A stretch of DNA of 64,000 nt, taken from the NCBI GenBank assembly GCA_001917135.1, contig MNTT01000015.1, positions 260,222-324,221 on the forward strand, written 5' to 3'. The position numbers and the translations under genes are program-made. Shown here in pieces: positions 776 to 63,969 of the stretch (positions within the stretch are counted from its first letter, which is position 1; the number at the start of each line of letters is the position of its first letter). The notes beneath the pieces were generated by a model, which saw only the letters and a program-made list of their open reading frames with translations, did not search any database and was not told where the DNA came from. The stretch comes from Acetobacter sp. 46_36. GTDB taxonomy: Bacteria; Pseudomonadota; Alphaproteobacteria; RF32; CAG-239.

Positions 776-877
776 TTAATGCCCTCTTTTTTGCGGTATT
801 TCTTAAACTTGTTAATTGTTTATTATAAATGTCTTAATTATGATATAACAAAATCAAATTTTTTAGGAATTAAAATC

Positions 878-1381
878 ATGAAAAAGTATGTTATTTTATC
901 CTTGGCTTTGCTTATTTCTTGTCCGGCTTTTGCAGGGAGTGTTCCTGTAGAGCTGGGAGAGTATGGCGACTGGACTGCATATTCATATAAAGAAGGAAAA
1001 AATTTGGTCTGTTATATGGCTTCGACGCCCAAAAAAGACGAAGGAAATTATAAAAAACGCGGGGATATATATGCCGTCGTAACCCATCGGCCTGCGGATA
1101 AAAGCTATAATGTAGTTAATTTTGTAGCCGGATATGATTATAAAAAAGGCTCCGGGGTGGTTGTAAAAATCGGTACAACGTCATTTAACAATCTGTTTAC
1201 CAGCGGAGATAACGCTTGGGCACCGGACGCTTCTACGGATAAGAAACTGGTTGATGCAATGAAGCGCGGACAAAGGATGATAGTTGAAGGAATGTCTTCA
1301 CGCGGAACCAAAACCAAGGACACATATTCTTTGGCCGGTTTTACGGGAGCTTATAAGGCAATCAGCGCAAAATGCAAATAA
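878..1381 (+). CDS. Secreted protein with cleavable signal peptide, IalB (invasion-associated locus B)-like family
   Basis: Internal ATG at 878 gives MKKYVILSLALLISCPAFAGS... (signal peptide), about 167 aa, two Cys. Architecture resembles alphaproteobacterial IalB family proteins. The longer ORF start at 716 is antisense to cca and lacks a signal peptide. Confidence 0.55.
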   Translation: MKKYVILSLALLISCPAFAGSVPVELGEYGDWTAYSYKEGKNLVCYMASTPKKDEGNYKKRGDIYAVVTHRPADKSYNVVNFVAGYDYKKGSGVVVKIGTTSFNNLFTSGDNAWAPDASTDKKLVDAMKRGQRMIVEGMSSRGTKTKDTYSLAGFTGAYKAISAKCK

Positions 1382-1391
1382 AGAGCATAAA

Positions 1392-2468
1392 ATGACAGAA
1401 AAAAAAGAACTTACAAATCTGACAAAAGAAGAATTAGTTGCAGAAATAGCCGGGCTTGGAGAAAAAAGTTTCCGGGCAAAACAATTGTGGCAATGGATAT
1501 ATTTTCGCGGTGTAACTGATTTTGCCGAAATGAGTAATCTTTCTTTGTCATTGCGGCAGAAACTGGAAGAAAACTATACGATTACCCGGCCAAAAATTAT
1601 TACGGAGCAAATATCCGTAGATAAAACCCACAAATGGTTGCTGGAGTTTAAGGACGGCGAACGCGTTGAAATGGTTTATATTCCGGAAAAAGACCGTGGA
1701 GCCGTATGTATTTCTACTCAGGTAGGCTGCGCAATGGGGTGTCGATTCTGCCACACCGGAAGCCAGAAATTTACCCGGAATTTGACTGTCGGAGAAATTG
1801 TCGGACAATTTATGGTGGCTCGCGATGCGTATGGCGAATGGCCGAGCCCGACAGATGAAGTGCGCTACCTTTCCAATATTGTGGTTATGGGAATGGGGGA
1901 ACCTTTAAACAACCTTGATAATGTTGTAAAAGCCCTGAATATTATAACCGATTGTGAGGGGATAGGAATTTCCCGTCGGCGCGTTACTATGTCAACCTCC
2001 GGGATTGCGCCCCGCATTGTGGAGGCTTTACAGCGAACGGGAGTTCGGCTTGCTGTTTCTCTTCATGCACCGAACAATATGATTCGTTCACAAATTATGC
2101 CTATAAACGATAAATTCAAAATTGAAGAAATAATGAAAGCCTGCGCTGAATATCAAAAAGGGGATCACAGTCGCTATATTACGTTTGAGTACCTTCTTTT
2201 AAAAAGGATAAATGATAGCCAGGACAATGCCGAAGAGTTGATTTCGCTTTTGAAAAAATATAAACTTCGCGCACTGTTTAATTTAATTCCTTTTAATCCC
2301 TGGCCCGGATGCGAATTTCAGCCAAGCGATAAAAAAACTGTCGAGGCCTTTTCGAATACTCTGGAAAAAGCAGGATTCGCAGCACCGGTCAGAGTAGCGC
2401 GGGGACAAGATATTTTGGCTGCCTGCGGTCAGCTAAAATCAAAATTGCCTGGAAAAAAAATGTCTTAA
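1392..2468 (+). CDS. rlmN: 23S rRNA m2A2503 / tRNA m2A37 methyltransferase (radical SAM)
   Basis: Radical-SAM CxxxCxxC motif (GCAMGCRFCHTG), GMGEPLNN motif and an overall RlmN-like sequence. Start chosen at MTEKKELTNL (1392) rather than the track's 1284. Confidence 0.9.
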   Translation: MTEKKELTNLTKEELVAEIAGLGEKSFRAKQLWQWIYFRGVTDFAEMSNLSLSLRQKLEENYTITRPKIITEQISVDKTHKWLLEFKDGERVEMVYIPEKDRGAVCISTQVGCAMGCRFCHTGSQKFTRNLTVGEIVGQFMVARDAYGEWPSPTDEVRYLSNIVVMGMGEPLNNLDNVVKALNIITDCEGIGISRRRVTMSTSGIAPRIVEALQRTGVRLAVSLHAPNNMIRSQIMPINDKFKIEEIMKACAEYQKGDHSRYITFEYLLLKRINDSQDNAEELISLLKKYKLRALFNLIPFNPWPGCEFQPSDKKTVEAFSNTLEKAGFAAPVRVARGQDILAACGQLKSKLPGKKMS

Positions 2469-2473
2469 GTTAA

Positions 2474-3397
2474 TTATATTCTGCAAGCACCTTCAATTTG
2501 GTGGTCAAGCCGGTCTTCATGGATGCCATAGGGGTCTTGGTGGATAAGCACCTGGCTTCCGGGATATGCTTCAAGTATTTTATGCTCAACCGCATCTGCC
2601 AGTTCATGAGCTTTGAGCAAAGATATGGAACCGTCAATTTCCAGATGAAGTTCAAAGTAATAAATATCACCCAGGCTTCTGCTGCGAAAATCGTGCATTC
2701 CGTGTATTCCTTTGCTGTTACGGACAATTTCCGTAATTTTTTCCCTGATTTCGGGAGCTAGTTCCTTGTCGGTTATCTGTTCTACGGATTCTGCAGCCAG
2801 CTGATAAGCATTATACAGTAAATATGCCGAAATAAACAATGCAGCGATTACATCAAAGTATGCAAAACCAAAAAAATGCACCAAAAGCAATGATAAAACA
2901 ACCGTTGCATTTGTCAGAAAGTCAACCGTATAATGCGCTCGATCCGCCTTAATTGCCAGAGAATTGGTCTTATTAGCAACATATGTCTGAAATAAAACCA
3001 ACAGCACAGTTGCCAGAATGCTGAAAAGCATAACCGCAATTCCTATAGCCGTTTGTTCTATTTGCACCGGATATATAAGTCTTTTTATTCCGTCTGCAAT
3101 AACAAAAATTCCAGATGCTCCGACAAAAATAGCCTGCAAAAAGGCGCTTAACGCCTCTGATTTGCCATATCCGTAGCGATGTTCTTTAGTAGCCGGTTTA
3201 GTTGAAAAATAAACCGCGGCGAAAGAAACAGCCGATGCAAACAAATCGGTAACACTGTCGGCAAGGGAAGAAAAAATGGCCAGAGAATCTGTCTTTATAA
3301 AAGCTGCAAGTTTCAAAACAATAAGCAAAACAGCCAGAGAAACACCGGCGATTGCTGCTGCTTTTTTCAAATAATTATTTTGTTCTTGTGATGTCAT
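2474..3397 (-). CDS. Cation diffusion facilitator (CDF) family metal efflux transporter
   Basis: Six TM helices with a HD/HxxxD-type motif (SLADSVTDL), C-terminal cytoplasmic domain, CDF-like. Confidence 0.8.
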   Translation of the reverse strand: MTSQEQNNYLKKAAAIAGVSLAVLLIVLKLAAFIKTDSLAIFSSLADSVTDLFASAVSFAAVYFSTKPATKEHRYGYGKSEALSAFLQAIFVGASGIFVIADGIKRLIYPVQIEQTAIGIAVMLFSILATVLLVLFQTYVANKTNSLAIKADRAHYTVDFLTNATVVLSLLLVHFFGFAYFDVIAALFISAYLLYNAYQLAAESVEQITDKELAPEIREKITEIVRNSKGIHGMHDFRSRSLGDIYYFELHLEIDGSISLLKAHELADAVEHKILEAYPGSQVLIHQDPYGIHEDRLDHQIEGACRI

Positions 3398-15707: not shown

Positions 15708-17453
15708 TTAATCGTAAAGATTTGGTAAAATCTCTTCTTTTTTGCCTGTGTTTATTTTTTGTTTGTCTGCTTTTTTCAAAGCAGAGATAAAAGCAGTAGC
15801 ATCAAAAAAGGTTTCGTTATCCGAATATAAGAGCTGATTAAGCAGATGTAACTGTTGCGAAAAGCCTTCGCTGCCGGATTTTTCGGCAATGATATTAAAA
15901 TTGGCAATATTTTCATCGCCATATTTTACTTTAGCCCATTTCAGCAGAAATTTCTTAGCTGTTTTATAGTCTTTTCTTTTTATAGCTCTGATAACCTCGT
16001 CACGATATATGCGGGCATGATTTTTTCTGCGGCGCATTAACATCAAAAAGGCAAAAGCAAAAAGAACAAAAGAGATAAGGGCATATAGATAAAAACTCTT
16101 ACTATTCTTCGGAAGAAATGGAGGCTCGTTTTTTTTCTGCTGCGGCAGAGAATTGATATTATCTTTGCCTGTATTATGTGCAGAAATTGCAGGAAGCAAA
16201 GGTGTTGTTTTTTCTTCAGTCTGTTCTTCAGGGAGGTTTGTATTCGGGGCAATGTCAATAACTTCTGCAGGAAGCGTTGTTTTTTCAAACAATCCGCTGT
16301 TTACATTAAACCATTCGATTTCCTGCTGGGGAAGTTTAAATTTTCCTGCCTTTTCGGGAATATAAACAACATTGATGGTTGCAGTTGTAACAAGTTGTCC
16401 GTCAACGGCAGACATGCTTGTTTCCGGTTTTTCCGGATACTGCTTAAAACCTTCTATGTCAGGAAATTGTAAAGCTGGAAACATGTCTTCGGGAAGTCCT
16501 GCTGCCGTTATGGTTATTTTTCGGCTTAAAGCTTCTCCCGCTTTAAATTGAGTTTGTGAAGACCATTCAGCCTGCATTGTCAGATTGCTCAAGGGAAGCC
16601 ATACTCCTGAAAATCCGCTTGGTTTAGGTTTAATGGTAATATTTTGCGGTTTGGTTCTCATGCGGACAGGAACTTTTTGCCCGAAAGCGTTGCGAAAATC
16701 GACGCCAAAAGTCATCAGGTCATCTTGAAAATCAGGAAATCCGAAATCAACGTTTTTAATATAAAAGCCATTGAATAAAAACTGCGGAACGGCAATTTTG
16801 CCGCTTTTAAGGGGAAATGCAGCAAAAACATAAGTGAGGACATTCATGTTTTTTCCGTTTATAACATCTTTTTTGATGAAAGGCTTGTTGGAAAGAGGCG
16901 TAATAGTCCAGTTTTTTTGCGTTTCATCGCTGATGTCAAGAGAACTGCCCTGCAGTCCCAGACTGTCATAAATCGTAACCCAAACGGTCAACTGTTGCTG
17001 AACATAAGGCGTTTCCGGACTGAATGTCTGTTCGATTTGGAAATACGGCGAATTGGAATTTTCCTTGCTGTCGGGAACAAAAGCGATATTTGAAACTTCT
17101 TTTACTTCAACTTCGGCATAATTTGAACTCAATCCGCCGAGCGTAATCGGTTTTATGGTAATTTTTCCTGTTTTAAGCGGTTTTAAGCCAATCGTCCACC
17201 TTTTGGTTTGTGTCAATGTTCCGTTAATATAATTTATTTGTCGGGCGGCATAATTGGAAACAATCTGAAAATCTTGTTGCAATGCACTTAAATCGGGATT
17301 TTCATCACTGTTACCGTTATAATCAATAGTCAAATTTAGGGTATCGCCCTCCGACATAGCGTTCTTGTCCAAATTAATGTTTATTTCTGCCGCATGAACG
17401 TGGAAAGCAAATAAACAGCCAAAGAAAAAAGTAAACAGGTTAAATATTTTCAT
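15708..17453 (-). CDS. batD: BatD-like protein (Bat aerotolerance-operon family), signal peptide + C-terminal TM
   Basis: Secreted 581-aa protein ending in a TM segment and a cytoplasmic tail. Last gene of a batA/batB-batC/batD-like cluster with overlapping stops/starts. Confidence 0.6.
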   Translation of the reverse strand: MKIFNLFTFFFGCLFAFHVHAAEININLDKNAMSEGDTLNLTIDYNGNSDENPDLSALQQDFQIVSNYAARQINYINGTLTQTKRWTIGLKPLKTGKITIKPITLGGLSSNYAEVEVKEVSNIAFVPDSKENSNSPYFQIEQTFSPETPYVQQQLTVWVTIYDSLGLQGSSLDISDETQKNWTITPLSNKPFIKKDVINGKNMNVLTYVFAAFPLKSGKIAVPQFLFNGFYIKNVDFGFPDFQDDLMTFGVDFRNAFGQKVPVRMRTKPQNITIKPKPSGFSGVWLPLSNLTMQAEWSSQTQFKAGEALSRKITITAAGLPEDMFPALQFPDIEGFKQYPEKPETSMSAVDGQLVTTATINVVYIPEKAGKFKLPQQEIEWFNVNSGLFEKTTLPAEVIDIAPNTNLPEEQTEEKTTPLLPAISAHNTGKDNINSLPQQKKNEPPFLPKNSKSFYLYALISFVLFAFAFLMLMRRRKNHARIYRDEVIRAIKRKDYKTAKKFLLKWAKVKYGDENIANFNIIAEKSGSEGFSQQLHLLNQLLYSDNETFFDATAFISALKKADKQKINTGKKEEILPNLYD

Positions 17454-19374
17454 CTCTATATCTGTCCTTTACATATTCTTTTTTTATAAATTCACGCAGT
17501 AACCCTCCGGGATCTTCAGGGATTTCCCGATATTGCCTCTGCATCATGATTGCCTCACCGTCATATTGCTCATTTTCGTTTCCCTGTTGAGCCCTGACCA
17601 GATTGACGGACTGTTCCTCTTGTTGCCTTTCTGTTCCGTTATTATCGTTTCCTGGAGTATTTCTGCTCTGGGCTTCGTCCTCTCCCCCAAGAGTGGCCTC
17701 AGCCGGCTGTTGCTTATTTTCACTGTTTTTTTGAGAACTGGTTTTATCGCTTTTTTCAGAATCCGTCTGTGTTTTTTGCTGTTGTTCGTCAGTATTCGTT
17801 TGCGCGTTTCTGTTTTCTTCTTCTGTTTTGGAGGCGGTAGAATTGCCCTGTTCCGTTTTAGGAGAGGCTTCCGGTGTGTTTTTATCGTTTTGCTGTGATT
17901 GGCTTTGACGCTGTCCGTTTTGGCCGGTTTGATTTTGGGAAGACTGTTTTTGCTGCTCCTGCTTCTCTTTATTGTTTTGCGGCGATGGATTGTTATTTGA
18001 ACTTTGGTCTTGTCTGGGTTTCTGTTCTTGCGCATCGTTTGTAGAAGGATTTTGCTGTTTTTGATTATCGCCGCACTCAAGAACGGATGGGTCTTGTTTT
18101 GCTTTTTCAAATAATTCATTTATAACTGTAAGATTATATTCGGCATCACTGTTTTTTGCATCAGCCTCAAGCGCTTTGGCAAAAGCTTCTTTTGCTTCAT
18201 TATATTTGCACATTTTTGTCAGAATGACGCCTTGGTTATAAAAAGAAAGGCTGCTGTTGGATTTCTGAAATTCTTTTAAGGCATCTTCAGGCCTGCCCTG
18301 TTTGTAAAGGGTTGCTCCTATCCAGTCCGTGTTCTTAAAAAACTTGAGAGCCTGTTCATATTGCCCTTTTTGAAACAGTCTGAGGCCTTCCTGATCATTA
18401 TTCAGAAAAAATCCGGCATAAGCCTGCAACGGAAACAACAATAAAACAAGAACAATCATTCCCCGCCGGAAAAACATCAAAGTGCAAAACAGGGGGATAA
18501 ACAACAGATAATATCCGTAATCTTCAAAATCAGAACGCATATTTTGGCTGCGTTTAATTCTTTCTTCGTTAATTTTTGTGATTTCATTGACAAGTTTTTG
18601 CGTATTTGCACTTCTAACGCTTAAATAGACGCCGTTTCCGGTATCTGCCAAAACTTTGAGCTTTTCGTTTCCTGAAAATGATGTATCAATAACGTGAACT
18701 TTGTAATTAAGGGCAGATGCTTTTTTGACGTGTTGTAATGCCAAGTCAAACCGCTGCCCGACGTCGGAAGTAAATAAAATAATGCTGCCCTGCGCATAAC
18801 CTGCGGCTTTAAATCGTTCAATTGCCAAATCAACAGCCCGGTCAAGCCGGTCGCCGTTGTCCGGAACAATGTCCGGTCTGATTTGCGGCAGAAGGTTTTT
18901 TAATAATTTGACATCGTCAGCAATCGGCGTAATGACATACGGTTCCTCCGAATATACTTCCAGGCCGAACTGCCCCTGCGGAATGTGTTCTGCCAAATCG
19001 GAAATCATAAATTTAGCCCGGTCAAGTCTGGAAGGCGTGATATCCGTAAGTTGCATATCCTGCGCCAGACTGAGGACAAACATATTCGGATTTTCCACGG
19101 CAAGGGAAGGGATTTCCGTTTTTTTCCATGCCGGCCCGGCAGCCGCAATGGCCGCCACGGCCAATCCCGTATAAATGAGTTTTTTTACGGAAAAATGCCT
19201 TTGCCCGCTATTGCTGACCAAAAGAAAATTTAACAAATTTTTATCACAAACATCTGCCCACGACGAAGCATTTCCACCTGTTTTTAATTTCTTAAAAAAC
19301 AAAAGCAGAGGAAGCAGCAGAAAAACCAGCAGCCATGGGCGCAAAAAATGAAAATTATGGAATAAATCGTTCAT
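17440..19374 (-). CDS. BatB/BatC-like fusion: N-terminal TM + von Willebrand A domain + TM + TPR repeats + ~230 aa Q/N/S/E/K-rich low-complexity tail
   Basis: vWA-like region (DLSRTQ-type motifs, LFTSDVGQ), TPR-like stretch (YEQALKFFKN...AKEAFAKALEADAKN). The C-terminal half is almost all Q, N, S, E, K, T. Confidence 0.6.
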   Translation of the reverse strand: MNDLFHNFHFLRPWLLVFLLLPLLLFFKKLKTGGNASSWADVCDKNLLNFLLVSNSGQRHFSVKKLIYTGLAVAAIAAAGPAWKKTEIPSLAVENPNMFVLSLAQDMQLTDITPSRLDRAKFMISDLAEHIPQGQFGLEVYSEEPYVITPIADDVKLLKNLLPQIRPDIVPDNGDRLDRAVDLAIERFKAAGYAQGSIILFTSDVGQRFDLALQHVKKASALNYKVHVIDTSFSGNEKLKVLADTGNGVYLSVRSANTQKLVNEITKINEERIKRSQNMRSDFEDYGYYLLFIPLFCTLMFFRRGMIVLVLLLFPLQAYAGFFLNNDQEGLRLFQKGQYEQALKFFKNTDWIGATLYKQGRPEDALKEFQKSNSSLSFYNQGVILTKMCKYNEAKEAFAKALEADAKNSDAEYNLTVINELFEKAKQDPSVLECGDNQKQQNPSTNDAQEQKPRQDQSSNNNPSPQNNKEKQEQQKQSSQNQTGQNGQRQSQSQQNDKNTPEASPKTEQGNSTASKTEEENRNAQTNTDEQQQKTQTDSEKSDKTSSQKNSENKQQPAEATLGGEDEAQSRNTPGNDNNGTERQQEEQSVNLVRAQQGNENEQYDGEAIMMQRQYREIPEDPGGLLREFIKKEYVKDRYRDENI

Positions 19375-20387
19375 TTCAGGTATCTCCCCGGCAAAAACAA
19401 CAGAAACAATGCCAAAATAAGGGCAAAAGTCAAAGGAATATAAAACAAGTCTTTTTTCTCCTGCACGATATTGCCCTCGCTTTTAGCCGGCTCCAACTGG
19501 TCAATTTTTGTATATATTTCAGCCAGCGAGTTTACGTCTGTTGCTCGAAAATAGTTTCCTTTTGTTTTTTGAGCCAGCTCCTTCAGGCTTTTTTCATCGA
19601 GTTCGCCATTGCCGAGTCCAAACAGTGAGCCGAGAAAGTTACGGTCGGAACCGACGCCGACGGTATATATTTTTATTCCCTCTTTTTCTGCCAGGCCGAT
19701 GGCTTGTGCCATGCTTAGGGAACCGTCGTTATTTTCTCCGTCCGTGAGCAAAATGATAACTTTATTGTTTTTTTCTTTTTCTTCCCGCAGATTTTTTAAT
19801 GCCAGACCCAGAGCATCGCCGATAGAAGTCGAATTGCCGGCCATACCTGCATCAGCATTATTCAGAATTTCTGCAACGGCATTTTTGTCAAAGGTAAGCG
19901 GAGACTGTACATAAGCGCGTGTTCCAAAAAGAATTAACCCAAGCCGGTCTTCCGTTCTTTTTTGCACAAAAGAGCCGACAACAGCTTTTACGGCTGTCAG
20001 CCTGTCAATCCTTTGGGTTCGGGACAAATCCGGTTGCAGCATTGACGGTGATATGTCTATAACGAGCATAATATCTCTGTTTTCAGCCTTAAGACGGTAT
20101 GGTTCGCCGACAAGTTGAGGACGTGCGGCAGCAATAACAAGCAGCACCCATAAAGAAAAAAGATAAAGATATTTAACGGAAAGCCAAGCTCTGCTTCCCA
20201 AAGCCGAAAATGCCGTTTGTTCAGATTTTGCCTGAATATATTTGATATCTTTTAAAAAGGGAACTTTTAATGCATCGCCGTGTACACCCCTGGCTTTGGG
20301 AAACAGAAAAAAAACGGCGAAAGGAAACAGCAGCAACCAAAAAAATTGCGGATATTCAAAAGTGGTCATAGATTTTCCCCTATCCAT
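19371..20387 (-). CDS. batA: BatA-like von Willebrand A domain membrane protein
   Basis: Two N-terminal TMs, vWA MIDAS motif (LVIDISPSM...DGENNDG), C-terminal TM. Confidence 0.7.
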   Translation of the reverse strand: MDRGKSMTTFEYPQFFWLLLFPFAVFFLFPKARGVHGDALKVPFLKDIKYIQAKSEQTAFSALGSRAWLSVKYLYLFSLWVLLVIAAARPQLVGEPYRLKAENRDIMLVIDISPSMLQPDLSRTQRIDRLTAVKAVVGSFVQKRTEDRLGLILFGTRAYVQSPLTFDKNAVAEILNNADAGMAGNSTSIGDALGLALKNLREEKEKNNKVIILLTDGENNDGSLSMAQAIGLAEKEGIKIYTVGVGSDRNFLGSLFGLGNGELDEKSLKELAQKTKGNYFRATDVNSLAEIYTKIDQLEPAKSEGNIVQEKKDLFYIPLTFALILALFLLFLPGRYLK

Positions 20388-20821
20388 TTTCGGCAGAAGT
20401 CTTTCAGGCTCTCAGCATCTTGCGGTACATAGGTTCGGCTGTTTTCTGAACCATTCATAAAAGGGGCAAACTTAAGAAGTTTTGCTGCCTGGGGGGATAA
20501 AGGAGAGGGAGTATGTTGATTTAGAAAGTCAATCCATTTTTCCCCGTAATATGAGCTTGCCTCCGGATATTTCAAAATGCAGATACGTCGCAACAATTCA
20601 GAAATCATAACCGCGGCATAAACCGGGCGTGATGTGGAAATTTCCTCAAGTTCTTTAAAAGCATAACGTCTTTTGCTGATTCGGCGCAGTTTTAAAATTA
20701 TTTTTATAATCATGAAAGCAAAAACACCGGCAGCCAGAACAACCCACCATCCGTATGCTACGGGAAAAAAAGATACGCCGTCAGGTATTTGTATATCTCT
20801 TATTTCCGGCAGATTGTTCAT
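20366..20821 (-). CDS. Small single-TM protein (DUF4381-like) preceding batA
   Basis: 151 aa, one TM (WWVVLAAGVFAFMIIKIIL). Position and size match the small membrane protein commonly upstream of batA. Confidence 0.45.
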   Translation of the reverse strand: MNNLPEIRDIQIPDGVSFFPVAYGWWVVLAAGVFAFMIIKIILKLRRISKRRYAFKELEEISTSRPVYAAVMISELLRRICILKYPEASSYYGEKWIDFLNQHTPSPLSPQAAKLLKFAPFMNGSENSRTYVPQDAESLKDFCRKWIGENL

Positions 20822-55984: not shown

Positions 55985-56290
55985 ATGATGTCAAACGTTA
56001 AAATAGCCAAATATATTGCCATATTGCTGGGTGCCTGTATCGTTTTGTGCACTTATTTTGTGTTTTTGAAAATCCTGAATAAGAAAACGGGTATTTCCGG
56101 TGTTCCGGTTTCCACCGAAATAGTGCTGAAAGTTCCTGAAAATGCCGAAGTAAAAGATGTCAGGATAGCCGAGGGAAAAATTTATTTTTTAATGGCATCG
56201 CCTTATGAAGAGAGTTTAGTTATCGTTGACGAAAATGCCCGGCAGGAGATTTTGAAAATTGTTCTGAAAAAGGAGAAAGCCCATGAGTAA
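55985..56290 (+). CDS. Small single-TM protein, first gene of the coupling-protein operon
   Basis: 101 aa, one N-terminal TM (IAILLGACIVLCTYFVFL), AAGGG RBS. No recognisable family. Confidence 0.5.
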   Translation: MMSNVKIAKYIAILLGACIVLCTYFVFLKILNKKTGISGVPVSTEIVLKVPENAEVKDVRIAEGKIYFLMASPYEESLVIVDENARQEILKIVLKKEKAHE

Positions 56291-57380
56291 TGATGATTCT
56301 CTTGATGCCTTTTTGACTGCGGATATGCCGGCGGAGGAAAAGAAAAATAACAAAGACACAAGTTTGGAAGATGAATTTGCCAAGCTTTTGAATGATTTTA
56401 TAAATCAGGATAAACCGGCCGCAAAACCAGATAATAAAAAAACGGAAGATAGTCTGGACAGTTTTCTTGAAAGTTCGGGCAGCGGTCTTGACAGCTTCTT
56501 GACTTCGCCGGTTGTTCCGTCCGAAAACACACCGGCCGCACAGCCGCAGCAGACATCTTTCAATGCGGAATCTGTGGAAAATGCCGCACAGCCGACAGAG
56601 GTGGAGAATTTGTCCGGTCTCGAAGTTCAGTCTGTATTTGCCGCTCCCGAAACCGCGCCGGAAAATATTCAGGCCGACGATACTGCCGCAAATAGGCTGA
56701 AACAGGAAGAGCAGGAATTAGCGCGTGCGGTTGCCAATTTTCAGGATGGCATAGTTGCAATGGCTGACAAAAAAAATCTTAAAGTACCCGATACCGATTA
56801 CAAAGAAGATATGCTGTATCCGAACTATAAGCCCAGTATTGGCAAAAAAATTGCCCAATATCTGCTGGCATGCTGGGATATTATGAATAAATATGATCCT
56901 GAAAATATGAAACGGCTCTCCAAAGATGCCGGAGATGAAGAATATCTCGCTTTTGCCGAAACGCTGAACGATACGGATATGCAGCTTGCCATAATATCGT
57001 ACGTTGAAATTCTTATAAATCTGGAAATTTGCGAGGTCAGCTATGAGCAAAAAAAAGAAATTTTGCAAAAAAATCGGATAAAGCGGGAATTGTATGAAGA
57101 ATATATGGAACTTCAGGAACGAAAAGCCCTGTTTATCAAAAAATTGAAAGAAAAAGATTTTCCGGTAGATGCGGAGCGGCTGATAGGAAATTACTTTCGG
57201 GTTGCACAAAAAGATCCCGACGGCTCGTTTAATGCTTTGGTAAAGAATCCGGCTATGTTTTCTCCGATAGAATTTGAAAAAATCCGGCCCAAATTTTTCG
57301 GATTAATAAAAGTAACGCCCGAAGACGGAATAAAAGCAAATCAAAAAATCGGGCATTTTATAAAAAAACTTAAAGTTTAA
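56283..57380 (+). CDS. Acidic protein: disordered N-terminal half with 3x SLDxFL motif, predicted helical C-terminal domain
   Basis: AAGGAG RBS; start overlaps the previous stop by 8 nt. DSLDAFL / DSLDSFL / GLDSFL tandem motif. No recognisable family. Confidence 0.6.
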   Translation: MSNDDSLDAFLTADMPAEEKKNNKDTSLEDEFAKLLNDFINQDKPAAKPDNKKTEDSLDSFLESSGSGLDSFLTSPVVPSENTPAAQPQQTSFNAESVENAAQPTEVENLSGLEVQSVFAAPETAPENIQADDTAANRLKQEEQELARAVANFQDGIVAMADKKNLKVPDTDYKEDMLYPNYKPSIGKKIAQYLLACWDIMNKYDPENMKRLSKDAGDEEYLAFAETLNDTDMQLAIISYVEILINLEICEVSYEQKKEILQKNRIKRELYEEYMELQERKALFIKKLKEKDFPVDAERLIGNYFRVAQKDPDGSFNALVKNPAMFSPIEFEKIRPKFFGLIKVTPEDGIKANQKIGHFIKKLKV

Positions 57381-57471
57381 TAAAATTTGCCTGATAGCGG
57401 AACGGTTTAAAGTAGACAACCTGCGGTTTTTATGCTAATATAACATAAAAGCATAAAAATCGGAGGCAAAA

Positions 57472-59103
57472 ATGGCTGAGCAATCCCAAATAAACAAATT
57501 GGACCGGATACTAAAGCAAAATATAGAAGATATGGAAAAAGCTACAGAGGCTAATTTGATTAGTGTTCCTCCCCGAGCCGGGGCAGAAACCGGAAATGGC
57601 AGTGCGCCTGCCGGGCAGCCGCCGGAAACCGGGACGCCGTCTCCGTCAGCAGGAACTGATAATACGGGAACGGGCGGAAACGATACAGGGGACAGCAGCA
57701 GTAACAGTCAGGACGCTCCTGCACAGCCTGAAAACGGACGGGATACACCGGAACCGCGTCGTCCCGAAAAAATTCCCGATGGTATCTCGCGGGCGTATGA
57801 TGATGTGTCTTTAGGCGAATTTGATACCAAAGCCCCGAAAGAAAAAACGGAAACCAAGGGTTCAAAACCTAAAGGCGGCATAACGCCCCCCAAACGCGAC
57901 CGCGGTGGAACCAAGGGAAAATCCGGCGGCGATGATATTATGGAAGTTTTTTGGAATGACTGTATTATGGCTTTTTATGCCTGGACAATAGATACGGTTG
58001 TCGACAATACGCTGGATTTTGCCGAATGGGTACTGTTTTCGCCATACAAATCCGGCGGCAGTACGGTTGAAACTACGACTGAAAAAAAGCCGAAAACCAT
58101 ATATATGTTGGGCGAAGAATTGTATAAAAGCCGTATGGAAAACTTTGCCAAAGAAAAAGATAAGCTGATAGAATTAAACGAAAATCTGGAAAAAAGCGCA
58201 AACGGAATCCAGCCTGAATGGAGACTTTGGGGAAAAATGCCGGCATTTTATCCCAAATTGCAGCAAATTCATGCCAAGGCAATAGAAAATCCCGACTCTG
58301 AAGAAGCCAAATTTATGCATAAGTACGGTTTGGGAAGCAGTGCCGAAACCGTCAAAGGGCGTTTTGCCAAAGAGGAAAAACTGTTTATGCTCGCAGTTCG
58401 TTTGGCTACGGTAGAAGAAGTCGTCAGCGATGCCAAAAATACGATTTCTCCTGAATTTTCCCAAAAATTGGCGGATTTGGATGAAACGTTGAAAAAGAAT
58501 AATTGCAGCAAGCAGGATATAACGGAAAAAATCAATGCTCTGTCTGAAGAAGCAGGCGGAGAATACGCTGTTTGCAAAGGTGTTTCTGATAAAATAGAAG
58601 AGATAAAGACCCTTCTTGAAAAAGATGGCGATATTTCAAAAGTAAAAAAAGATATCGTAAAAAAAGCCAAGGATATTCGTAAGATTTCCGAGGGTGCCGG
58701 CCACGATGAAGACATCATAAAAGAACATATCAGAAAACGCGGCCAGGAAAAATATAAGAGGCTTATGGAAAATATTGATAAAATTCATGAAGCTTATGTG
58801 GATGACCCGGAAAAGGTCAAGGAAACTATTAAAGAATACCTTAGTTCTGTAAATAATGCCGGCAAGGAGGCCAAGCAAGCGACGGACAAAGTCATTGAAG
58901 AAGGCCTGAAAGGCAAAATAAATGCCGGGGAAAAACGTAAAAACGCCAAAGCATCCGTAGAAAAAATTGATACGGCGATAAATGATTTTATGCTTGAAGG
59001 CGAAAAAATATCATCAAAAGCTCCGGCAGCCCAAAAAGATGAATTCGTATTAACGGAAAAACAATTTTCTAAAGCTATAAAAGATTATCGGTTGGGTCGC
59101 TAA
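57472..59103 (+). CDS. 543-aa protein: G/T/P/S-rich disordered N-region, then a long K/E-rich predicted helical domain
   Basis: GGAGG RBS; coding-like composition. No recognisable family. Confidence 0.6.
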   Translation: MAEQSQINKLDRILKQNIEDMEKATEANLISVPPRAGAETGNGSAPAGQPPETGTPSPSAGTDNTGTGGNDTGDSSSNSQDAPAQPENGRDTPEPRRPEKIPDGISRAYDDVSLGEFDTKAPKEKTETKGSKPKGGITPPKRDRGGTKGKSGGDDIMEVFWNDCIMAFYAWTIDTVVDNTLDFAEWVLFSPYKSGGSTVETTTEKKPKTIYMLGEELYKSRMENFAKEKDKLIELNENLEKSANGIQPEWRLWGKMPAFYPKLQQIHAKAIENPDSEEAKFMHKYGLGSSAETVKGRFAKEEKLFMLAVRLATVEEVVSDAKNTISPEFSQKLADLDETLKKNNCSKQDITEKINALSEEAGGEYAVCKGVSDKIEEIKTLLEKDGDISKVKKDIVKKAKDIRKISEGAGHDEDIIKEHIRKRGQEKYKRLMENIDKIHEAYVDDPEKVKETIKEYLSSVNNAGKEAKQATDKVIEEGLKGKINAGEKRKNAKASVEKIDTAINDFMLEGEKISSKAPAAQKDEFVLTEKQFSKAIKDYRLGR

Positions 59104-59114
59104 GGAGAAGATAA

Positions 59115-59606
59115 ATGGCAAAAGTGGAAAAATTGATAAAATTTTTTACGGTTTGTGCAGTTGTTTTTGTCGTTTTGGGGTATATTTGCCGGGAATTGTT
59201 TAAATTTATCTGGAATTTTGATATTTTCAATCGGGAATCTTACCGGATTTTGTATGATTACTGGGAAAACGGCGGCGTATTTAATACGTTTCGGGATTGC
59301 AGCTTGGGGCTGTTCTTGTTTTTAATGCCCGTAATATGGCTGGTTTTGAGTTATAAGCTGTATAAGTACGGGCTGGTGAAGTTTTTGCTTAATCCGTTGG
59401 TTAAACTGTACCGCCGTATAACCCGTCCTAAAACTATGGAAGTTGAACACGTTTCAATCAAAAATCTTGGCGGGAAGGATAAAACGCTGGATGAGATTAT
59501 CGCCGAAAAAGTGGAAAAGCAGGGAGGGAACAAAAGTGCCGGACATGCCTCGCAAAATCTGCGCCGGCAGATAGCTGCAAAAATTGAAGAAAATGAAAAA
59601 CAATAA
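59115..59606 (+). CDS. 2-TM membrane protein, paralogous in its N-terminus to the next gene
   Basis: AAGGAG RBS; TMs FFTVCAVVFVVLGYIC and LGLFLFLMPVIWLVLSY. Shared motif WNFDIF...ESYRILYDYWENGG. Confidence 0.6.
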   Translation: MAKVEKLIKFFTVCAVVFVVLGYICRELFKFIWNFDIFNRESYRILYDYWENGGVFNTFRDCSLGLFLFLMPVIWLVLSYKLYKYGLVKFLLNPLVKLYRRITRPKTMEVEHVSIKNLGGKDKTLDEIIAEKVEKQGGNKSAGHASQNLRRQIAAKIEENEKQ

Positions 59607-59660
59607 TTACTTGTTAACCAATCAATGGATATAATGGGAAAATAAAAGCCGGAGAAGAAC

Positions 59661-60986
59661 TTGAAACCGCTGATAATAATACTAAAAACACTGATAGTCG
59701 GCTATTTATGGAGTATTGTCTTCATAGATGGCATCAGGGTGGTTTTGCTTATAAACTGGCATTTTGACATCTTTTTATCCGAACACTGGCGCCTTTTGAG
59801 TTATAAGTGGAACAGCGGAGCGCCTATGACAAATTCAGAACTGGGCTTTTTTATGATTATAGCCAGCTCGATTCCGCTGTGGCTTGCCGGCTGGGTAGGG
59901 TTATGCCTTGTAAAGTGGGAGCGCCTGCTGAAAAAAGTATTCTTAAGCCCTCTGTATCTTTTCCGCAAAATAACCTTAAAAACCAAACCTCCGGTAGTTG
60001 TTAAGAAAAAGTCCATTGCGGAAGAAACAAAAGTTGTTAAAAAGACGCCGATAATCAAAAAAGCCCCGGTCAAACGTCCGCCGCTGCCGTCTGCGACTTT
60101 AATGCAGTCAAATATAAACAGTAATTTGATGGCATCGCCTGCCGGACGTACTTCTTCCTATACACCGGGCAAAAAAGAGCCGGAAGCGCCGATTAACCAT
60201 GCTCTGTTTAATTTTGACGATGATGATTTTGACTTGGATTTTGATTTTGAAAAGAAAGATAAGAAGCCGGATATCGATGATTCCATTCCTTCGGCGCTTA
60301 TGGTTGACGAGCCGAAAACGATTGAAACCGTTCCTGCGGCGGTTGTTGAAGAAAAGCCTAAAAACACGCCGGCACCTTCAAAAAACCAGGAAAAATCATC
60401 ACCGCAGAATAATAAAAAAGACAATGCCCAGCCTAAAAACAAATCCGCAGATATGTCTGCCGCTCAGGCTATGCCGATTAAGGAATCCCATACTCCGGTT
60501 TTGGATGTTCTTAATCAAAAGGGATTTGACGTCATCCCTTCGGCGATTATCAAAAATACGACAATTGATTACATCGGCGTTTCCAAAAATCAACTCTTTT
60601 TATGCCTGATTGATAAAGAAGCCGGCGACTGGCTGGCGGATGAAGAAAAGTTCAATGATGAAGAGCCGTTATGGTTTTCGGAAAGCAGCCACCGCATTTC
60701 TCCGGTACGAAAGATTGATGTGGCCAGAGATATTTTAAAGACCAAACTGGCTGTCGGAGATATGAATTTTGAAATCATCGCGTATGTTATCATTCAGGCC
60801 GGCAATATTATTAACGCCGAGGATATGTTTGAAATCTGGAACAATATGAACGTAAATGTAACGCGTATAAACCGGGGCAGCCCGAAAGAAATCCGTCTGT
60901 TTTCAAAGTCGTTGGATAATTGTGAGGAAAAAACGGATAAAAATACGCTTGAAAAACTTAAGAAACTTATTCGCAGTCTGGCATAA
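59661..60986 (+). CDS. 2-TM membrane protein with long K/P-rich and acidic-aromatic linker and ~190-aa C-terminal globular domain; TTG start
   Basis: GGAGAAG RBS with TTG at 59661. N-terminus paralogous to the preceding gene (WHFDIF...EHWRLLSYKWNSG). FNFDDDDFDLDFDFE patch. Confidence 0.55.
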   Translation: MKPLIIILKTLIVGYLWSIVFIDGIRVVLLINWHFDIFLSEHWRLLSYKWNSGAPMTNSELGFFMIIASSIPLWLAGWVGLCLVKWERLLKKVFLSPLYLFRKITLKTKPPVVVKKKSIAEETKVVKKTPIIKKAPVKRPPLPSATLMQSNINSNLMASPAGRTSSYTPGKKEPEAPINHALFNFDDDDFDLDFDFEKKDKKPDIDDSIPSALMVDEPKTIETVPAAVVEEKPKNTPAPSKNQEKSSPQNNKKDNAQPKNKSADMSAAQAMPIKESHTPVLDVLNQKGFDVIPSAIIKNTTIDYIGVSKNQLFLCLIDKEAGDWLADEEKFNDEEPLWFSESSHRISPVRKIDVARDILKTKLAVGDMNFEIIAYVIIQAGNIINAEDMFEIWNNMNVNVTRINRGSPKEIRLFSKSLDNCEEKTDKNTLEKLKKLIRSLA

Positions 60987-61010
60987 TTGTTATTATTGAG
61001 GTAAGAAAAA

Positions 61011-63230
61011 ATGGCAAAAGAAAGAGGAAAAGAATGGGAAGAATATGACAACGCCGTCCGGTGGATGACAATAACGTTCGCCATCGCGGTCGTTGTTACG
61101 GTTGTTTTCATGTATATCGCCCCGATTCTGGCATTTTTTATGCAAAACGGTATTTCCAAAAAGAGTGTGGAAATAGCAGGTTTGTTTTTGAAAAAGTCTT
61201 TTGCAGACTTTGGCTTTTTGTGGGACTGGTATCTGAAATGGTTCAAAAAGGTTTATCGTTACAGCGGCGAGTTTAAAATAAGTTTATGGCCGCCGATTCT
61301 GCCGTTTATTTCTTTTCCGCTGATTTTGATTATCGGCGGCATAAAGTGCCCGTATAAATTCCAATCGAATATTCACGGGTCGGCGCACATTGCTACTTTG
61401 CGCGATATTGAAAAAATGCCGCTGCTCGGATTTGACGGTTTTTGTATGGTGGTCGGCAAGTTTCAGGGTAAAATGCTGAAACTGAAAGAAACGCTGTCAA
61501 CCCTGTGTTGTGCGCCTCCGGGAACCGGTAAAACTGCCGGTGTCGTTATTCCGACAATTTTTAATTCCGAGGGGCTTAGCATTATCGTAAACGACCCGAA
61601 ACCAGAGTTGTGCTACCAGACGACGGGTGCGAGAAACAAGGTCGGCCCTGTATTTGTCATCAACTGGGGTAAGGAAGACAATCCGGCAACTGGAGAATAC
61701 TATCCGAGTTGGAACCCGCTGTCTCCGGGAGCGCTCCCGGCACCGGGGCCGGAACGCGACCTGTATGTCGATTCTATGTGCAACACGCTGGTGGAAGACC
61801 CCAAGGGCGGCGCTGACCCGCACTGGTCAAAAACCGGTCGAAGCGCGCTCTGCGGCTTTATCCATTTTATCTCTTCCAAATGCGAACGGGCTTTAGCTAA
61901 TGAACGCTTTATACAGAAAATTTATGAAGGCTCAATGACAGCCGAAGACAAAGCCGAGTTGATAAAGCTTTACGACGAAATGAGCATCGGCGGTTTGCGG
62001 GCTAATGCCGCGCGCGCAATTCAGGACTTGCAGAACGGAAATCTGACGATTGAAAATTATCTGCCTGTCGGAACCTGGAACCTACTGCCGGAAAAATGGA
62101 TTAACCACGAGCCCTGTCTGGCGATGATTCTGGAATGGATTACTTCGTCCCAGATTGAACAGAGCAATGAAATTAAACGCCGCCTGGAAGAAGGCGACCA
62201 AATGGCCGCTATGGCAGACCCGATGCGCGATTTGCTGGACGCCGCGGTGGAAGAAGCAAATAACTATGGGTATTCCCGCCGCTGCGTAACCGAATTGAGC
62301 GCTTTGAGCGCCATGCCGGATAAAGAGCGGGGATCCGTCCTTTCTACCGGTCTTACCGGTATCGGTATTTTCAAAAACTCGGCAGTTGTGGCCCGTACCA
62401 GCTTTTCCGATATTCAGTTTAAAGATTTGCGTGGTATGAAGGATCCGGTAACCGGCGAATGGAAGCCGATTTCCGTTTACCTTTCGGTTAACCAGACGGA
62501 CGCTCAGGCGTTGAACCCGATTAGCGCGACATTTGTTGACCTGATGAGCGCTTATCTTATTTCAAATCCGCCGAATTCTGTTAACCGTACTGACGGTAAA
62601 ATGGGGCCTTTCCCGACTTTGTTTGTGCTTGACGAGTTCCCGCAGATGCCGAAGCTGAAAGCGGTTATTGACGGGCCGGCGGTCGGCCGCGGACAAAAAG
62701 TTTCGTATCTGCTGATTGGGCAAGACTTGGGTCAGATTTCCGGAAAATACGGTAAAGACGACTTGGAAACAGTTATATCTACAACTGCCTGCAAGGTTAT
62801 TCTGTCACAGAACAACGAACAGACGGCACAGCGTTTTTCCAAAATGATTGGCAATAAAACGGTGCAGACTACGTCCTACAGCCGAAACGAAGGCAGCCTT
62901 GCCAAAGAATATAATCCGTTTGCCAAAAACGTCAGCTATCAGTTGCAGGGCGTTTCAGCCATCAGTGCCAATGACTTGTTGAGTTTGCCGATGCTGAAAC
63001 AGGTCGTGCTGATGCAAGGCTCGATTGATACGCCGATTATGGCAGACGCGCCGCGTTTTTATCTGGACAAGAAAATGCTGGCAATGTCAAAGCTCCCGCA
63101 TTCTCCGTGGGTTCCGGACTGGATTGTTGCTCAGCGTACTGATGAAAATGAGGATATCCTGTCTAAATTAGGTATAGACTATGATCCGAATGCAGAAGAA
63201 GAGGAAGGTTTTGAAGAAGACGAAGCTTAA
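61011..63230 (+). CDS. Type IV secretion/conjugation coupling protein (VirD4/TraG/TraD family ATPase), 739 aa with acidic C-terminal tail
   Basis: Two N-terminal TMs, IHGSAHIATLRD (TraG/VirD4 HGSARWA-like motif), Walker A APPGTGKTAG, Walker B LFVLDEFPQM, C-terminus ...DPNAEEEEGFEEDEA. Confidence 0.85.
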   Translation: MAKERGKEWEEYDNAVRWMTITFAIAVVVTVVFMYIAPILAFFMQNGISKKSVEIAGLFLKKSFADFGFLWDWYLKWFKKVYRYSGEFKISLWPPILPFISFPLILIIGGIKCPYKFQSNIHGSAHIATLRDIEKMPLLGFDGFCMVVGKFQGKMLKLKETLSTLCCAPPGTGKTAGVVIPTIFNSEGLSIIVNDPKPELCYQTTGARNKVGPVFVINWGKEDNPATGEYYPSWNPLSPGALPAPGPERDLYVDSMCNTLVEDPKGGADPHWSKTGRSALCGFIHFISSKCERALANERFIQKIYEGSMTAEDKAELIKLYDEMSIGGLRANAARAIQDLQNGNLTIENYLPVGTWNLLPEKWINHEPCLAMILEWITSSQIEQSNEIKRRLEEGDQMAAMADPMRDLLDAAVEEANNYGYSRRCVTELSALSAMPDKERGSVLSTGLTGIGIFKNSAVVARTSFSDIQFKDLRGMKDPVTGEWKPISVYLSVNQTDAQALNPISATFVDLMSAYLISNPPNSVNRTDGKMGPFPTLFVLDEFPQMPKLKAVIDGPAVGRGQKVSYLLIGQDLGQISGKYGKDDLETVISTTACKVILSQNNEQTAQRFSKMIGNKTVQTTSYSRNEGSLAKEYNPFAKNVSYQLQGVSAISANDLLSLPMLKQVVLMQGSIDTPIMADAPRFYLDKKMLAMSKLPHSPWVPDWIVAQRTDENEDILSKLGIDYDPNAEEEEGFEEDEA

Positions 63231-63246
63231 ATCTGCCGCTGCGGAA

Positions 63247-63969
63247 ATGAGAAGTTTTTCTCTGTGGTGCGTTTTGAAGAGCAGTATAAAATTTATACTG
63301 CTCTTCAAGCGTACATTTTTATTGTGGTGTTTGGCAAATTTTGCTTTTCTGATTGTCTTTAGGCAGATTCCAAATGGCTGGACCAATTCGCTGAGCATCC
63401 TGTGGCTTGTTGCCTACTATGTGTTTTGGTGCGTGTTTGTCCGTCATATTCAGCAGCATCCGCCTTATTTTTCCCTAATTCGTATTTTTAACGGTTTGAT
63501 TCCCGCCAGCAAAATTATGTTTATTAACATTATAATCTATTTGGTTTTGGTAATTGCTCCATACATTCCATTATTTATGGGTTTTAGGGAGAAATATCTG
63601 GAATTTTTTGAGCAATATATGGCTGTTTTGCAAAGCCATAATTCCCTGCCGGGGAAAACGCTGTTTTATGTATTAATGCTGCTGTTGTCTCCGTATACGA
63701 TAAGCCGGCCGTATCTTGCCTGGTTATCATCGCTGATAGGAAAAAGCCGCTCAATCATAGATGCTTACAAAAAGACACAAGGCAACTATTGGAATTTTGT
63801 CTTTTGTGCAGTTGTTATGAGCGGGCTGTTTGCTCTGTCATATTTTATTGACGTTACTTATAAAACAAGCTCTCTGATTTTTGTAATGTCAGTCCTGCCG
63901 ATATTTTTCAATGTCGTCTTTATTGATATTTACAAAGTATTTTACAAGCGTAGAAAAAATATCAAATAA
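63247..63969 (+). CDS. Polytopic membrane protein of unknown function, last gene of the operon
   Basis: About 6 hydrophobic segments. Start ambiguous: the track ORF starts at 63181 and overlaps the T4CP gene by 50 nt; MRSFSLW at 63247 avoids the overlap. Confidence 0.5.
   Translation: MRSFSLWCVLKSSIKFILLFKRTFLLWCLANFAFLIVFRQIPNGWTNSLSILWLVAYYVFWCVFVRHIQQHPPYFSLIRIFNGLIPASKIMFINIIIYLVLVIAPYIPLFMGFREKYLEFFEQYMAVLQSHNSLPGKTLFYVLMLLLSPYTISRPYLAWLSSLIGKSRSIIDAYKKTQGNYWNFVFCAVVMSGLFALSYFIDVTYKTSSLIFVMSVLPIFFNVVFIDIYKVFYKRRKNIK

Follow-up and report, generated by a model that had tools for sequence, protein, structure and literature searches.

What might a short peptide be doing when it is repeated along the disordered tail of a protein that is encoded beside a type IV coupling protein (T4CP)? 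The question is raised by a gene at positions 56283-57380 (+) of the stretch of DNA analysed here, a 64-kb window on contig MNTT01000015.1 of Acetobacter sp. 46_36, to which the coordinates below refer. Coupling proteins decide the cargo of type IV secretion and conjugation machines, and recruitment to them is understood in few model systems. The 365-aa product of this gene, which we refer to as the LDxF protein after its repeats, offers a clean case with 1-7 copies of one six-residue peptide as the only hydrophobic features of the tail. Its operon is common in uncultured but widespread gut and rumen Alphaproteobacteria (51 loci in species-representative genomes; 636 protein clusters). The receptor of the peptide, once found, would define a new peptide-domain pair for T4CP biology and would give the first functional handle on an operon that is annotated only for its ATPase. 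The analysis showed that the motif is real, conserved at the protein level, variable in copy number and restricted to the LDxF protein in the sampled loci.

The gene is an open reading frame (ORF) without internal stops, preceded by an AAGGAG Shine-Dalgarno sequence at 56270-75, 7 nucleotides upstream of the start codon, and its first 8 nucleotides overlap the end of the 101-aa gene upstream, stop codon included. The three motif copies that the first-pass annotation had reported were all found: SLDAFL (residues 6-11, 56298-56315 (+); DSLDAFL at 5-11), which has a fixed position near the N-terminus, SLDSFL (residues 57-62, 56451-56468 (+)) and GLDSFL (residues 68-73, 56484-56501 (+); SGLDSFL at 67-73). 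The only correction was a small one, as DSLDSFL lies at residues 56-62 and not at about 57-63. A probable decayed fourth copy, GLEVQ (residues 112-116, 56616-56630 (+)), is suggested by the alignment, in which it falls opposite [SG]LD[SG][LFM][ILV] of the orthologues, immediately ahead of the C-domain (columns ~270-285, consensus 'LDxL'). Besides the motifs, the tail contains an acidic amphipathic helix, LEDEFAKLLNDFINQD (residues 28-43, 56364-56411 (+)), in which E29, F32, L35, L36 and F39 are invariant. All of the hydrophobic residues among the first 75 fall in the three motifs or in this helix, apart from the start Met and M15.

The acidic and disordered N-terminal region followed by a helical domain, which had been proposed from the letters alone, was borne out by both the composition and the structure prediction. 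Residues 1-137 contain 28 D+E versus 8 K+R, giving a net charge of -20, and 53% of these 137 residues are P, S, T, Q, N, A or G. In an AlphaFold model that was built with 52 homologues, the predicted local distance difference test score (pLDDT) was below 50 at residues 1-4, 13-26 and 45-133. The single helix that was predicted within the tail covers residues 27-43 (pLDDT ~82), with disorder on either side, and a short helix was also predicted at residues 8-12, i.e., at motif copy 1. Residues ~140-365 were modelled as a helical domain with a pLDDT above 90 for residues 140-280. This C-terminal domain (residues ~138-365, 56694-57377 (+)) contains dozens of invariant columns in the alignment and is covered in part by profile matches, and ends in a conserved basic helix, KIGxFIKKLKV (KIGHFIKKLKV in the LDxF protein). 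The family, fold and motif are all unannotated. Among 5.8 billion proteins searched, none of the 636 clusters of homologues has an informative name or a reliable Pfam domain; the protein had no match in Pfam (E up to 0.1), NCBIfam, PHROG, PADLOC or the PDB sequences, and the fold search returned generic helical-bundle matches only and no specific one. A literature search on the motif strings and on T4CP adaptors with short linear motifs found nothing relevant.

Whether so short a pattern deserves attention depends on how often it would arise by accident. None of the 300,000 shuffles of the 137-residue tail gave at least three LD.F[LIV] matches, with 0.008 expected per tail. Six-frame translation of the entire window yielded three matches to [SG]LD.F[LIVM], all of them inside the ORF of the LDxF protein. 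The strict form [SGT]L[DE].F[LIV][TS] occurred 94 times in the orthologues (14,487 aa) versus 0 times in 226,441 aa of neighbouring proteins, which were taken from the gene neighbourhoods of 39 related loci. A chance origin of the motif is thereby excluded. Within the neighbourhoods that were sampled, the motif was confined to this one protein, and the idea of a shared targeting tag is therefore not supported. A metagenome query with a synthetic repeat was uninformative; one locus was confirmed among the matches listed, and it is probably an orthologue that had already been seen.

The motif is also conserved among orthologues in the way that is characteristic of a functional peptide in a disordered chain, with key residues kept, flanks that diverge and a frequency above chance, and its earlier description as a short linear motif therefore stands. 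In a MAFFT alignment of 52 sequences that took no account of the motif, L7 and D8 do not vary, F10, L58, L69 and F72 reach at least 90% conservation, and the spacers between the copies are gapped and unalignable. The copy statistics were obtained from the 120 best orthologues, which contain 366 copies (110 first and 256 internal) of the general form [S/G]-L-D-x-F-[L/I/V]-[T/S]. A copy within the first 16 residues, at about residues 6-12, was present in 110 of the 120 and has the consensus [S/G]-L-D-[A/S]-F-[L/I]-T, and the consensus of the 256 internal copies is G-L-D-[S/G]-F-[V/I/L]-[T/S]-[P/S]. The residue ahead of the Leu is G or S in 217 of the internal copies, and the one ahead of the Phe is S in 142 and G in 75 of them; in the 110 first copies, this position is A in 47 and D in 15. 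Across the orthologues, the motif is encoded with five different Leu codons, with both GAT and GAC for Asp and with both TTT and TTC for Phe, and, since the synonymous codons vary, it is the peptide rather than the DNA or RNA that is under selection.

The number of copies per orthologue ranges from 1 to 7, with two copies in 28 orthologues, three in 51, four in 27 and five to seven in eight, and the gap between internal copies is 11-58 residues with a median of 16. Some orthologues (L004 at 1474-1700, L036, L042 and L061) contain 5-6 near-identical tandem units of 14-15 residues with one motif each (e.g., TGLDSFLTPEEPKA), and these look like recent expansions of the array. Such near-identical units in some genomes indicate that the copy number shifts by tandem duplication; a variable copy number together with tandem units is typical of evolving multivalent motif arrays.

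The repeats are confined to one clade, which we term group A and whose T4CPs are 80-100% identical. In its sister clade, group B (loci L045-L059), the T4CP is about 71% identical. The helix at residues 28-43 is retained both in group B and in remote homologues of about 300 aa, which all lack the LDxF repeats, and its end in the LDxF protein, LNDFI, resembles the motif (pattern L-[N/D]-x-F-[I/L/V]); in several homologues, it is an exact match to the motif, LLDSFI or LLDDFI. From this distribution, the repeats are an innovation of group A and the helix is older than the repeats, which may have been derived from, or may imitate, its end. The N-terminus of the group B proteins is basic (MAKKNKKK...) and is followed by another conserved element, [I/L]D[I/V]N[Q/K][S/T][I/V][I/V]. 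In about half of the group B loci (L050-L053, L055 and L059), HKDLESL[N/H]ILPPEN is conserved after the helix.

The link of the LDxF protein to a T4CP operon, which had been assumed in the first reading, was upheld and is an old one, as is seen from the synteny in about 45 loci and from remote homologues whose genes adjoin those of a T4CP or a VirB6-like protein. Seven genes at 55985-63969 (+) run in one direction, with that of the LDxF protein in second place, and are flanked by rpoH-rluD on one side and ligA-infC on the other. This arrangement is kept in about 45 of the 51 loci with the gene in single copy, which marks the operon as a stable part of the chromosome rather than a mobile element. 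The 51 loci all belong to uncultured Alphaproteobacteria from gut, rumen or faeces; the closest of them (94% identity) is in a metagenome-assembled genome (MAG) from the human gut that is labelled "uncultured Rickettsiales bacterium UMGS1453" (contig set URXV01). The coupling protein itself (739 aa, 61011-63230 (+)) belongs to the VirD4/TraG family, with matches to the Pfam families PF02534 (T4SS-DNA_transf, 7e-54), PF12696 (TraG-D_C, 2e-22) and PF10412 (TrwB_AAD_bind, 5e-18). Its sequence contains N-terminal transmembrane-like segments, a Walker A motif (APPGTGKT) and a Walker B motif (VLDEF), and every named NCBIfam subfamily was far below its cut-off. Its acidic C-terminal tail (...LSKLGIDYDPNAEEEEGFEEDEA / ...EDILSKLGIDYDPNAEEEEGFEEDEA, 63140-63230), with EEEEGFEEDEA, is conserved across groups A and B. 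A charge-complementary contact between this acidic tail and the basic C-terminus of the LDxF protein is possible.

Remote homologues were collected with a profile search of 1.84 billion representative proteins, which gave 130 matches. The part that is common to all of them is the last ~80-130 residues (the profile matches span residues ~234-363), with the shared signature FP[I/V]DA..L..NY....KD...A...L..NPA.F.PI....FGL.K..P.DG...N..[I/L]..FLK.LK. In three loci (L007, L064 and L065), a homologue heads an operon with two paralogues that have two transmembrane segments each and a T4CP, divergent from a VirB6/TrbL-like gene, and the protein with two transmembrane segments in this lineage bears the same C-domain signature as the 441-aa protein of the window. 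At L010, the homologue lies beside three tandem VirB6-like genes. These neighbourhoods suggest that the family is tied to type IV secretion. Together with L008, the four loci contain a conserved pair of divergent operons, one of which consists of the homologue, the paralogues with two transmembrane segments and the T4CP. The other comprises 1-3 VirB6/TrbL-like genes (some of them RHS-fused), uncharacterised genes for proteins of ~490 aa and ~70 aa, a double helix-turn-helix regulator and a protein of ~1360 aa. No VirB4 or VirB8-11 was flagged within the 10-kb flanks in the remote lineages. A further architecture is found in P0249 (L067 at 97-3111), a protein of 1004 aa, encoded on a contig too short to reveal its gene neighbourhood, with an N-terminal TIR domain, repeats that look Sel1-like by eye, a domain homologous to that of the LDxF protein and a C-terminal DDDFDKLLREFINS, which resembles the N-terminal helix of the LDxF protein. 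Its domain aligned with residues 135-294 of the LDxF protein in hhalign (87.5%) and was a weak match, of a single sequence, in the profile search (E 8e-4). A by-eye match of the N-terminal helix to FFDAVFDDFIE of the remote homologues was dropped, as that segment aligns with C-domain residues ~190-209.

The first-pass annotation had suggested three candidate roles for the motif, as a secretion signal, an adaptor-binding motif or an effector-targeting motif. Of the readings that we considered for the array, we tentatively favour, at rather less than full conviction and somewhat short of calling it probable, a multivalent docking device on an accessory or adaptor subunit of a T4CP-centred module. 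It is proposed because the L, the D, the F and the following hydrophobic residue are kept, with Gly before and Thr/Ser-Pro after them, in an otherwise polar and acidic chain, and because the whole is repeated every 11-30 residues. The LDxF protein would then be a fixed accessory subunit of a chromosomal T4CP module in uncultured gut Alphaproteobacteria. Anchorage to the module would be provided by the helical C-domain, which alone is common to all of the remote homologues, and the acidic disordered tail would display the docking peptides, one fixed at the N-terminus and 1-6 more along the linker. Each copy would present a small hydrophobic face (L, F and L/I/V) beside the Asp and would probably insert into a groove of a folded partner, and several copies could provide avidity or enable one molecule to hold several partner subunits at once. 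As the receptor, we would prefer one of the module's multimeric components, above all the coupling ATPase; coupling ATPases of the T4CP family are hexameric in the solved members. The protein might thus work as a tether or adaptor at the coupling complex. That the motif is a binding site, what its receptor may be and that the protein acts as an adaptor are all inferred.

Several results weigh against this docking at the coupling complex. The T4CP as receptor is a guess that draws only on the operon context and the hexameric state of its family. The orthologues of group B and the remoter homologues retain the operon but have no LDxF repeats, and the array is therefore a lineage-specific addition that is not essential to the core function. 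In the same lineage, the 441-aa protein of the operon acquired an acidic-aromatic motif of another kind, and both motifs could therefore be bound by a third protein. In the AlphaFold model, the motifs are not docked on the domain of the protein itself (pLDDT <50), which is silent on other partners. Finally, no VirB4, VirB6 or VirB8-11 was found in the scanned window ORFs (27 of about 50) or within 10 kb on either side of the group A loci, and a query with a VirB6-like protein from a remote relative retrieved 14 proteins, none of which came from group A.

The main rival of such a docking device is self-association, in which the motifs, like the helix at residues 28-43, would bind a groove on the protein's own C-domain, either in cis, as competitors with a regulatory role, or in trans, where they would assemble a multivalent network or hub at the coupling complex; the architecture would be like that of PopZ, with an N-terminal binding helix, an acidic linker and a helical oligomerisation domain. 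We consider this unlikely. In its favour, the helix is found family-wide, in group A, group B and the ~300-aa homologues, it is predicted with a pLDDT of ~82 despite the flanking disorder, its LL[D]DFI or LLDSFI forms match the motif exactly, and in P0249 the homologous domain and DDDFDKLLREFINS are joined in the opposite order, so that a second architecture also combines helix and domain. However, the match to P0249 is weak and comes from one sequence, a likeness over five residues can arise by convergence, the pLDDT of the LDxF copies is below 50 so that no docking is predicted, and there was no Pfam match to PopZ. Should the partner instead be an external hub outside the operon, such as a chaperone, a protease adaptor or a division or polarity protein, the array would serve localisation or turnover. 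This would fit the fixed position of copy 1 at residues 6-12, which is reminiscent of terminal recognition tags, the lineage-specific nature of the array and the fact that no operon partner stands out by its presence or absence, the gene of the 543-aa protein being homologous in groups A and B. The bacterial hub motifs with which we compared the repeat do not fit, though, and the gain of an acidic-aromatic motif by the 441-aa neighbour in exactly the same lineage points to a change within the module, and so we rate an external hub as improbable.

The position of the gene next to that of the T4CP would also suit a translocated substrate or effector, whose repeats would be a secretion or recruitment signal that the coupling complex reads or would mimic eukaryotic motifs (paxillin-type LD or WIRS-like) inside a host. 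Many effectors contain disordered acidic stretches with short motifs, and the tail is such a region; L-D-S-F-L-x can be fitted to the WIRS pattern, hydrophobic-x-[S/T]-F-x-x, and the basic C-terminus KIGHFIKKLKV is of a kind found in some VirB/D4 substrates. Nevertheless, the LDxF protein behaves as a fixed component of a machine, which argues against an effector: it is single-copy and syntenic, holding its position in about 45 loci, and its C-domain is very conserved, far more so than effectors usually are. In remote homologues, the C-domain and the link to type IV secretion persist without the motif. Neither eukaryotic rule is kept, as the residue ahead of the Phe is S in only 142 of the 256 internal copies and A in 47 of the 110 first copies and LDxLLxxL is not maintained, and no secretion channel was revealed by the VirB6-like query and the scanned window ORFs. 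We therefore regard this role as improbable. It is far less credible still that the repeats are a functionless by-product of tandem duplication in a low-complexity linker. Recent tandem units of 14 aa do occur in some genomes and the copy number varies freely from 1 to 7, but L, D, F and the next hydrophobic residue are fixed where the spacers are beyond alignment, the synonymous codons vary and the position of copy 1 is held in 110 of the 120 orthologues, a pattern of conservation by which neutrality already looks refuted.

The favoured docking array was further compared with known systems. Accessory proteins that use short peptides at a coupling protein are already known from Dot/Icm and TraM-TraD. 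The Dot/Icm type IV coupling complex of Legionella consists of DotL with the adaptors DotM, DotN, IcmS-IcmW and LvgA, and its recognition steps use short peptides: Glu-rich signals are bound by DotM and an FxxxLxxxK-type motif by LvgA. Both systems encode accessory proteins beside the coupling ATPase, which in Dot/Icm are assembled on it, and in both a membrane-protein gene lies directly upstream of the T4CP gene, as dotM does. However, the LDxF protein has no sequence or fold similarity to IcmS, IcmW, LvgA, DotM or DotN, the upstream protein with two transmembrane segments has a nuclease-like fold and not that of DotM, the motif is carried by a fixed accessory protein rather than by many substrates, and the T4CP resembles VirD4/TraG without reaching the cut-off of any named NCBIfam subfamily. 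In the F plasmid, the acidic C-terminal tail of TraD with its key Phe docks TraM onto the coupling protein. The T4CP in the window likewise ends in a conserved acidic tail that contains a Phe (EEEEGFEEDEA), but the polarity is possibly reversed, since the repeated peptide is on the accessory protein and is multivalent, the LDxF protein is not homologous to TraM, and no relaxase or oriT was seen.

Similar differences separate the repeat from the better-known motif classes. Paxillin LD motifs (LDxLLxxL) bind four-helix bundles such as the FAT and talin rod domains. The consensus L-D-[S/G/A]-F-[V/I/L]-[T/S]-[P/S] differs from them in having no conserved Leu at +6/+7, is often Pro-capped and too short for a two-turn helix, and occurs in a bacterial context; the talin matches of the LDxF protein were generic helical-bundle ones at 9% identity. 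The S/T that is obligatory before the Phe in WIRS is not kept here, as this position is G in 75 of the 256 internal copies, and A in 47 and D in 15 of the 110 first copies. The bacterial sliding-clamp binding motif QL[S/D]LF has a Gln at position 1 and a Leu before the Phe, unlike the repeat, which has G or S ahead of the L (217/256 internal copies) and S, G or A ahead of the F. The ParA-activating peptide at the N-terminus of ParB, LG[R/K]GLxALL, has a basic residue just upstream of GL, whereas the positions upstream of the repeat are mostly E, D, N, S, T or G, with K in 21 of 256 at position -5. PopZ, a polar organising protein from the same class, Alphaproteobacteria, has a comparable layout with an N-terminal acidic amphipathic binding element, an acidic disordered linker and a helical C-domain, but the LDxF protein gave no Pfam match to its family (DUF2497) at E up to 0.1, and PopZ is not known to contain LDxF repeats or to be encoded beside a T4CP.

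The other genes of the operon were characterised in turn. The first encodes a 101-aa membrane protein (55985-56290 (+)) with a transmembrane-like segment at residues 3-33 and was found in only part of the group A loci. Downstream of the LDxF gene lies that of a fast-evolving 543-aa protein (57472-59103 (+)) with a disordered, partly basic N-terminal half that is followed by a helical region. BLAST had suggested that this gene is absent from group B, which would have made it a candidate for a motif-specific partner, but hhalign showed that the group A and group B versions are homologous and have a common core (94%), and it was rejected as a discriminating partner; among the operon genes, none was found whose presence matches that of the motif. 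The next two genes encode a 163-aa protein with two transmembrane-like segments (59115-59606 (+)), which is a paralogue of the N-terminal part of the following protein (BLASTP 2e-7), and the 441-aa protein (59661-60986 (+)). The latter consists of two transmembrane segments, a disordered linker and a nuclease-like C-domain, which showed the features of a restriction-endonuclease-like alpha/beta core (PD-(D/E)XK / NERD-like fold) and has invariant D303, D318 and E320. DotM had been considered for this protein and was rejected because of the nuclease-like fold. Its linker contains an invariant acidic-aromatic element, HALFNFDDDDFDLDFDF (residues 180-196, 60198-60248), which is present in group A and absent in group B. 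This distribution is the same as that of the LDxF repeats, and acidic-aromatic peptides were thus acquired by two of the module's proteins in one lineage. The last conserved gene, beyond that of the T4CP, encodes a polytopic membrane protein of ~252-262 aa (63181-63969 (+)) with an uncertain start codon. Its identification as VirB6 was rejected, as hhalign revealed no relation to VirB6/TrbL.

The wider surroundings were searched for a secretion channel. Apart from the coupling protein, no secretion gene was recognised among the 27 scanned window ORFs, which were either housekeeping genes or had no match. Nor was VirB4, VirB6 or VirB8-10 called at L001-L003 and L005, the loci with precomputed Pfam gene calls. 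It is conceivable, if improbable, that the operon is an undescribed T4CP-centred module that works without the canonical VirB4/VirB8-10 channel. Its parts would be the T4CP, a pair of membrane-anchored paralogues with a nuclease-like domain and two disordered proteins that are rich in acidic-aromatic motifs, and the LDxF array and the FDLDFDF element of the 441-aa protein would together form a multivalent hub where DNA or protein cargo is collected at the inner membrane for the ATPase. Should these genomes truly be devoid of a secretion channel, the operon would be a case of a coupling protein at work in a new context.

Some minor observations concern the window and the public records of the operon. 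At 15708-20821 (-), the window contains a Bat-like cluster (BatD, VWA plus TPR, VWA and DUF4381), followed by genes for a NUDIX protein, an S41 protease, an M23 peptidase and phosphoglycerate mutase; these are all ordinary housekeeping genes, and none is a secretion gene. A respiratory operon, which had been the first guess for window ORFs, was rejected, as the genes are of the Bat/VWA, protease and glycolysis types. Operon contigs at L022, L055 and P0033 are filed publicly under MAGs of Ruminococcus flavefaciens or Lachnospiraceae, which is probably a binning error. At 63273-63309 (+), 43 nucleotides past the stop codon of the T4CP gene, there is a perfect 17-bp stem with a 3-nucleotide loop and then a T-rich stretch. 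The stem falls within what is predicted to be the N-terminus of the last operon gene; either it acts as a possible terminator or attenuator, or the start of that gene may have been mis-set.

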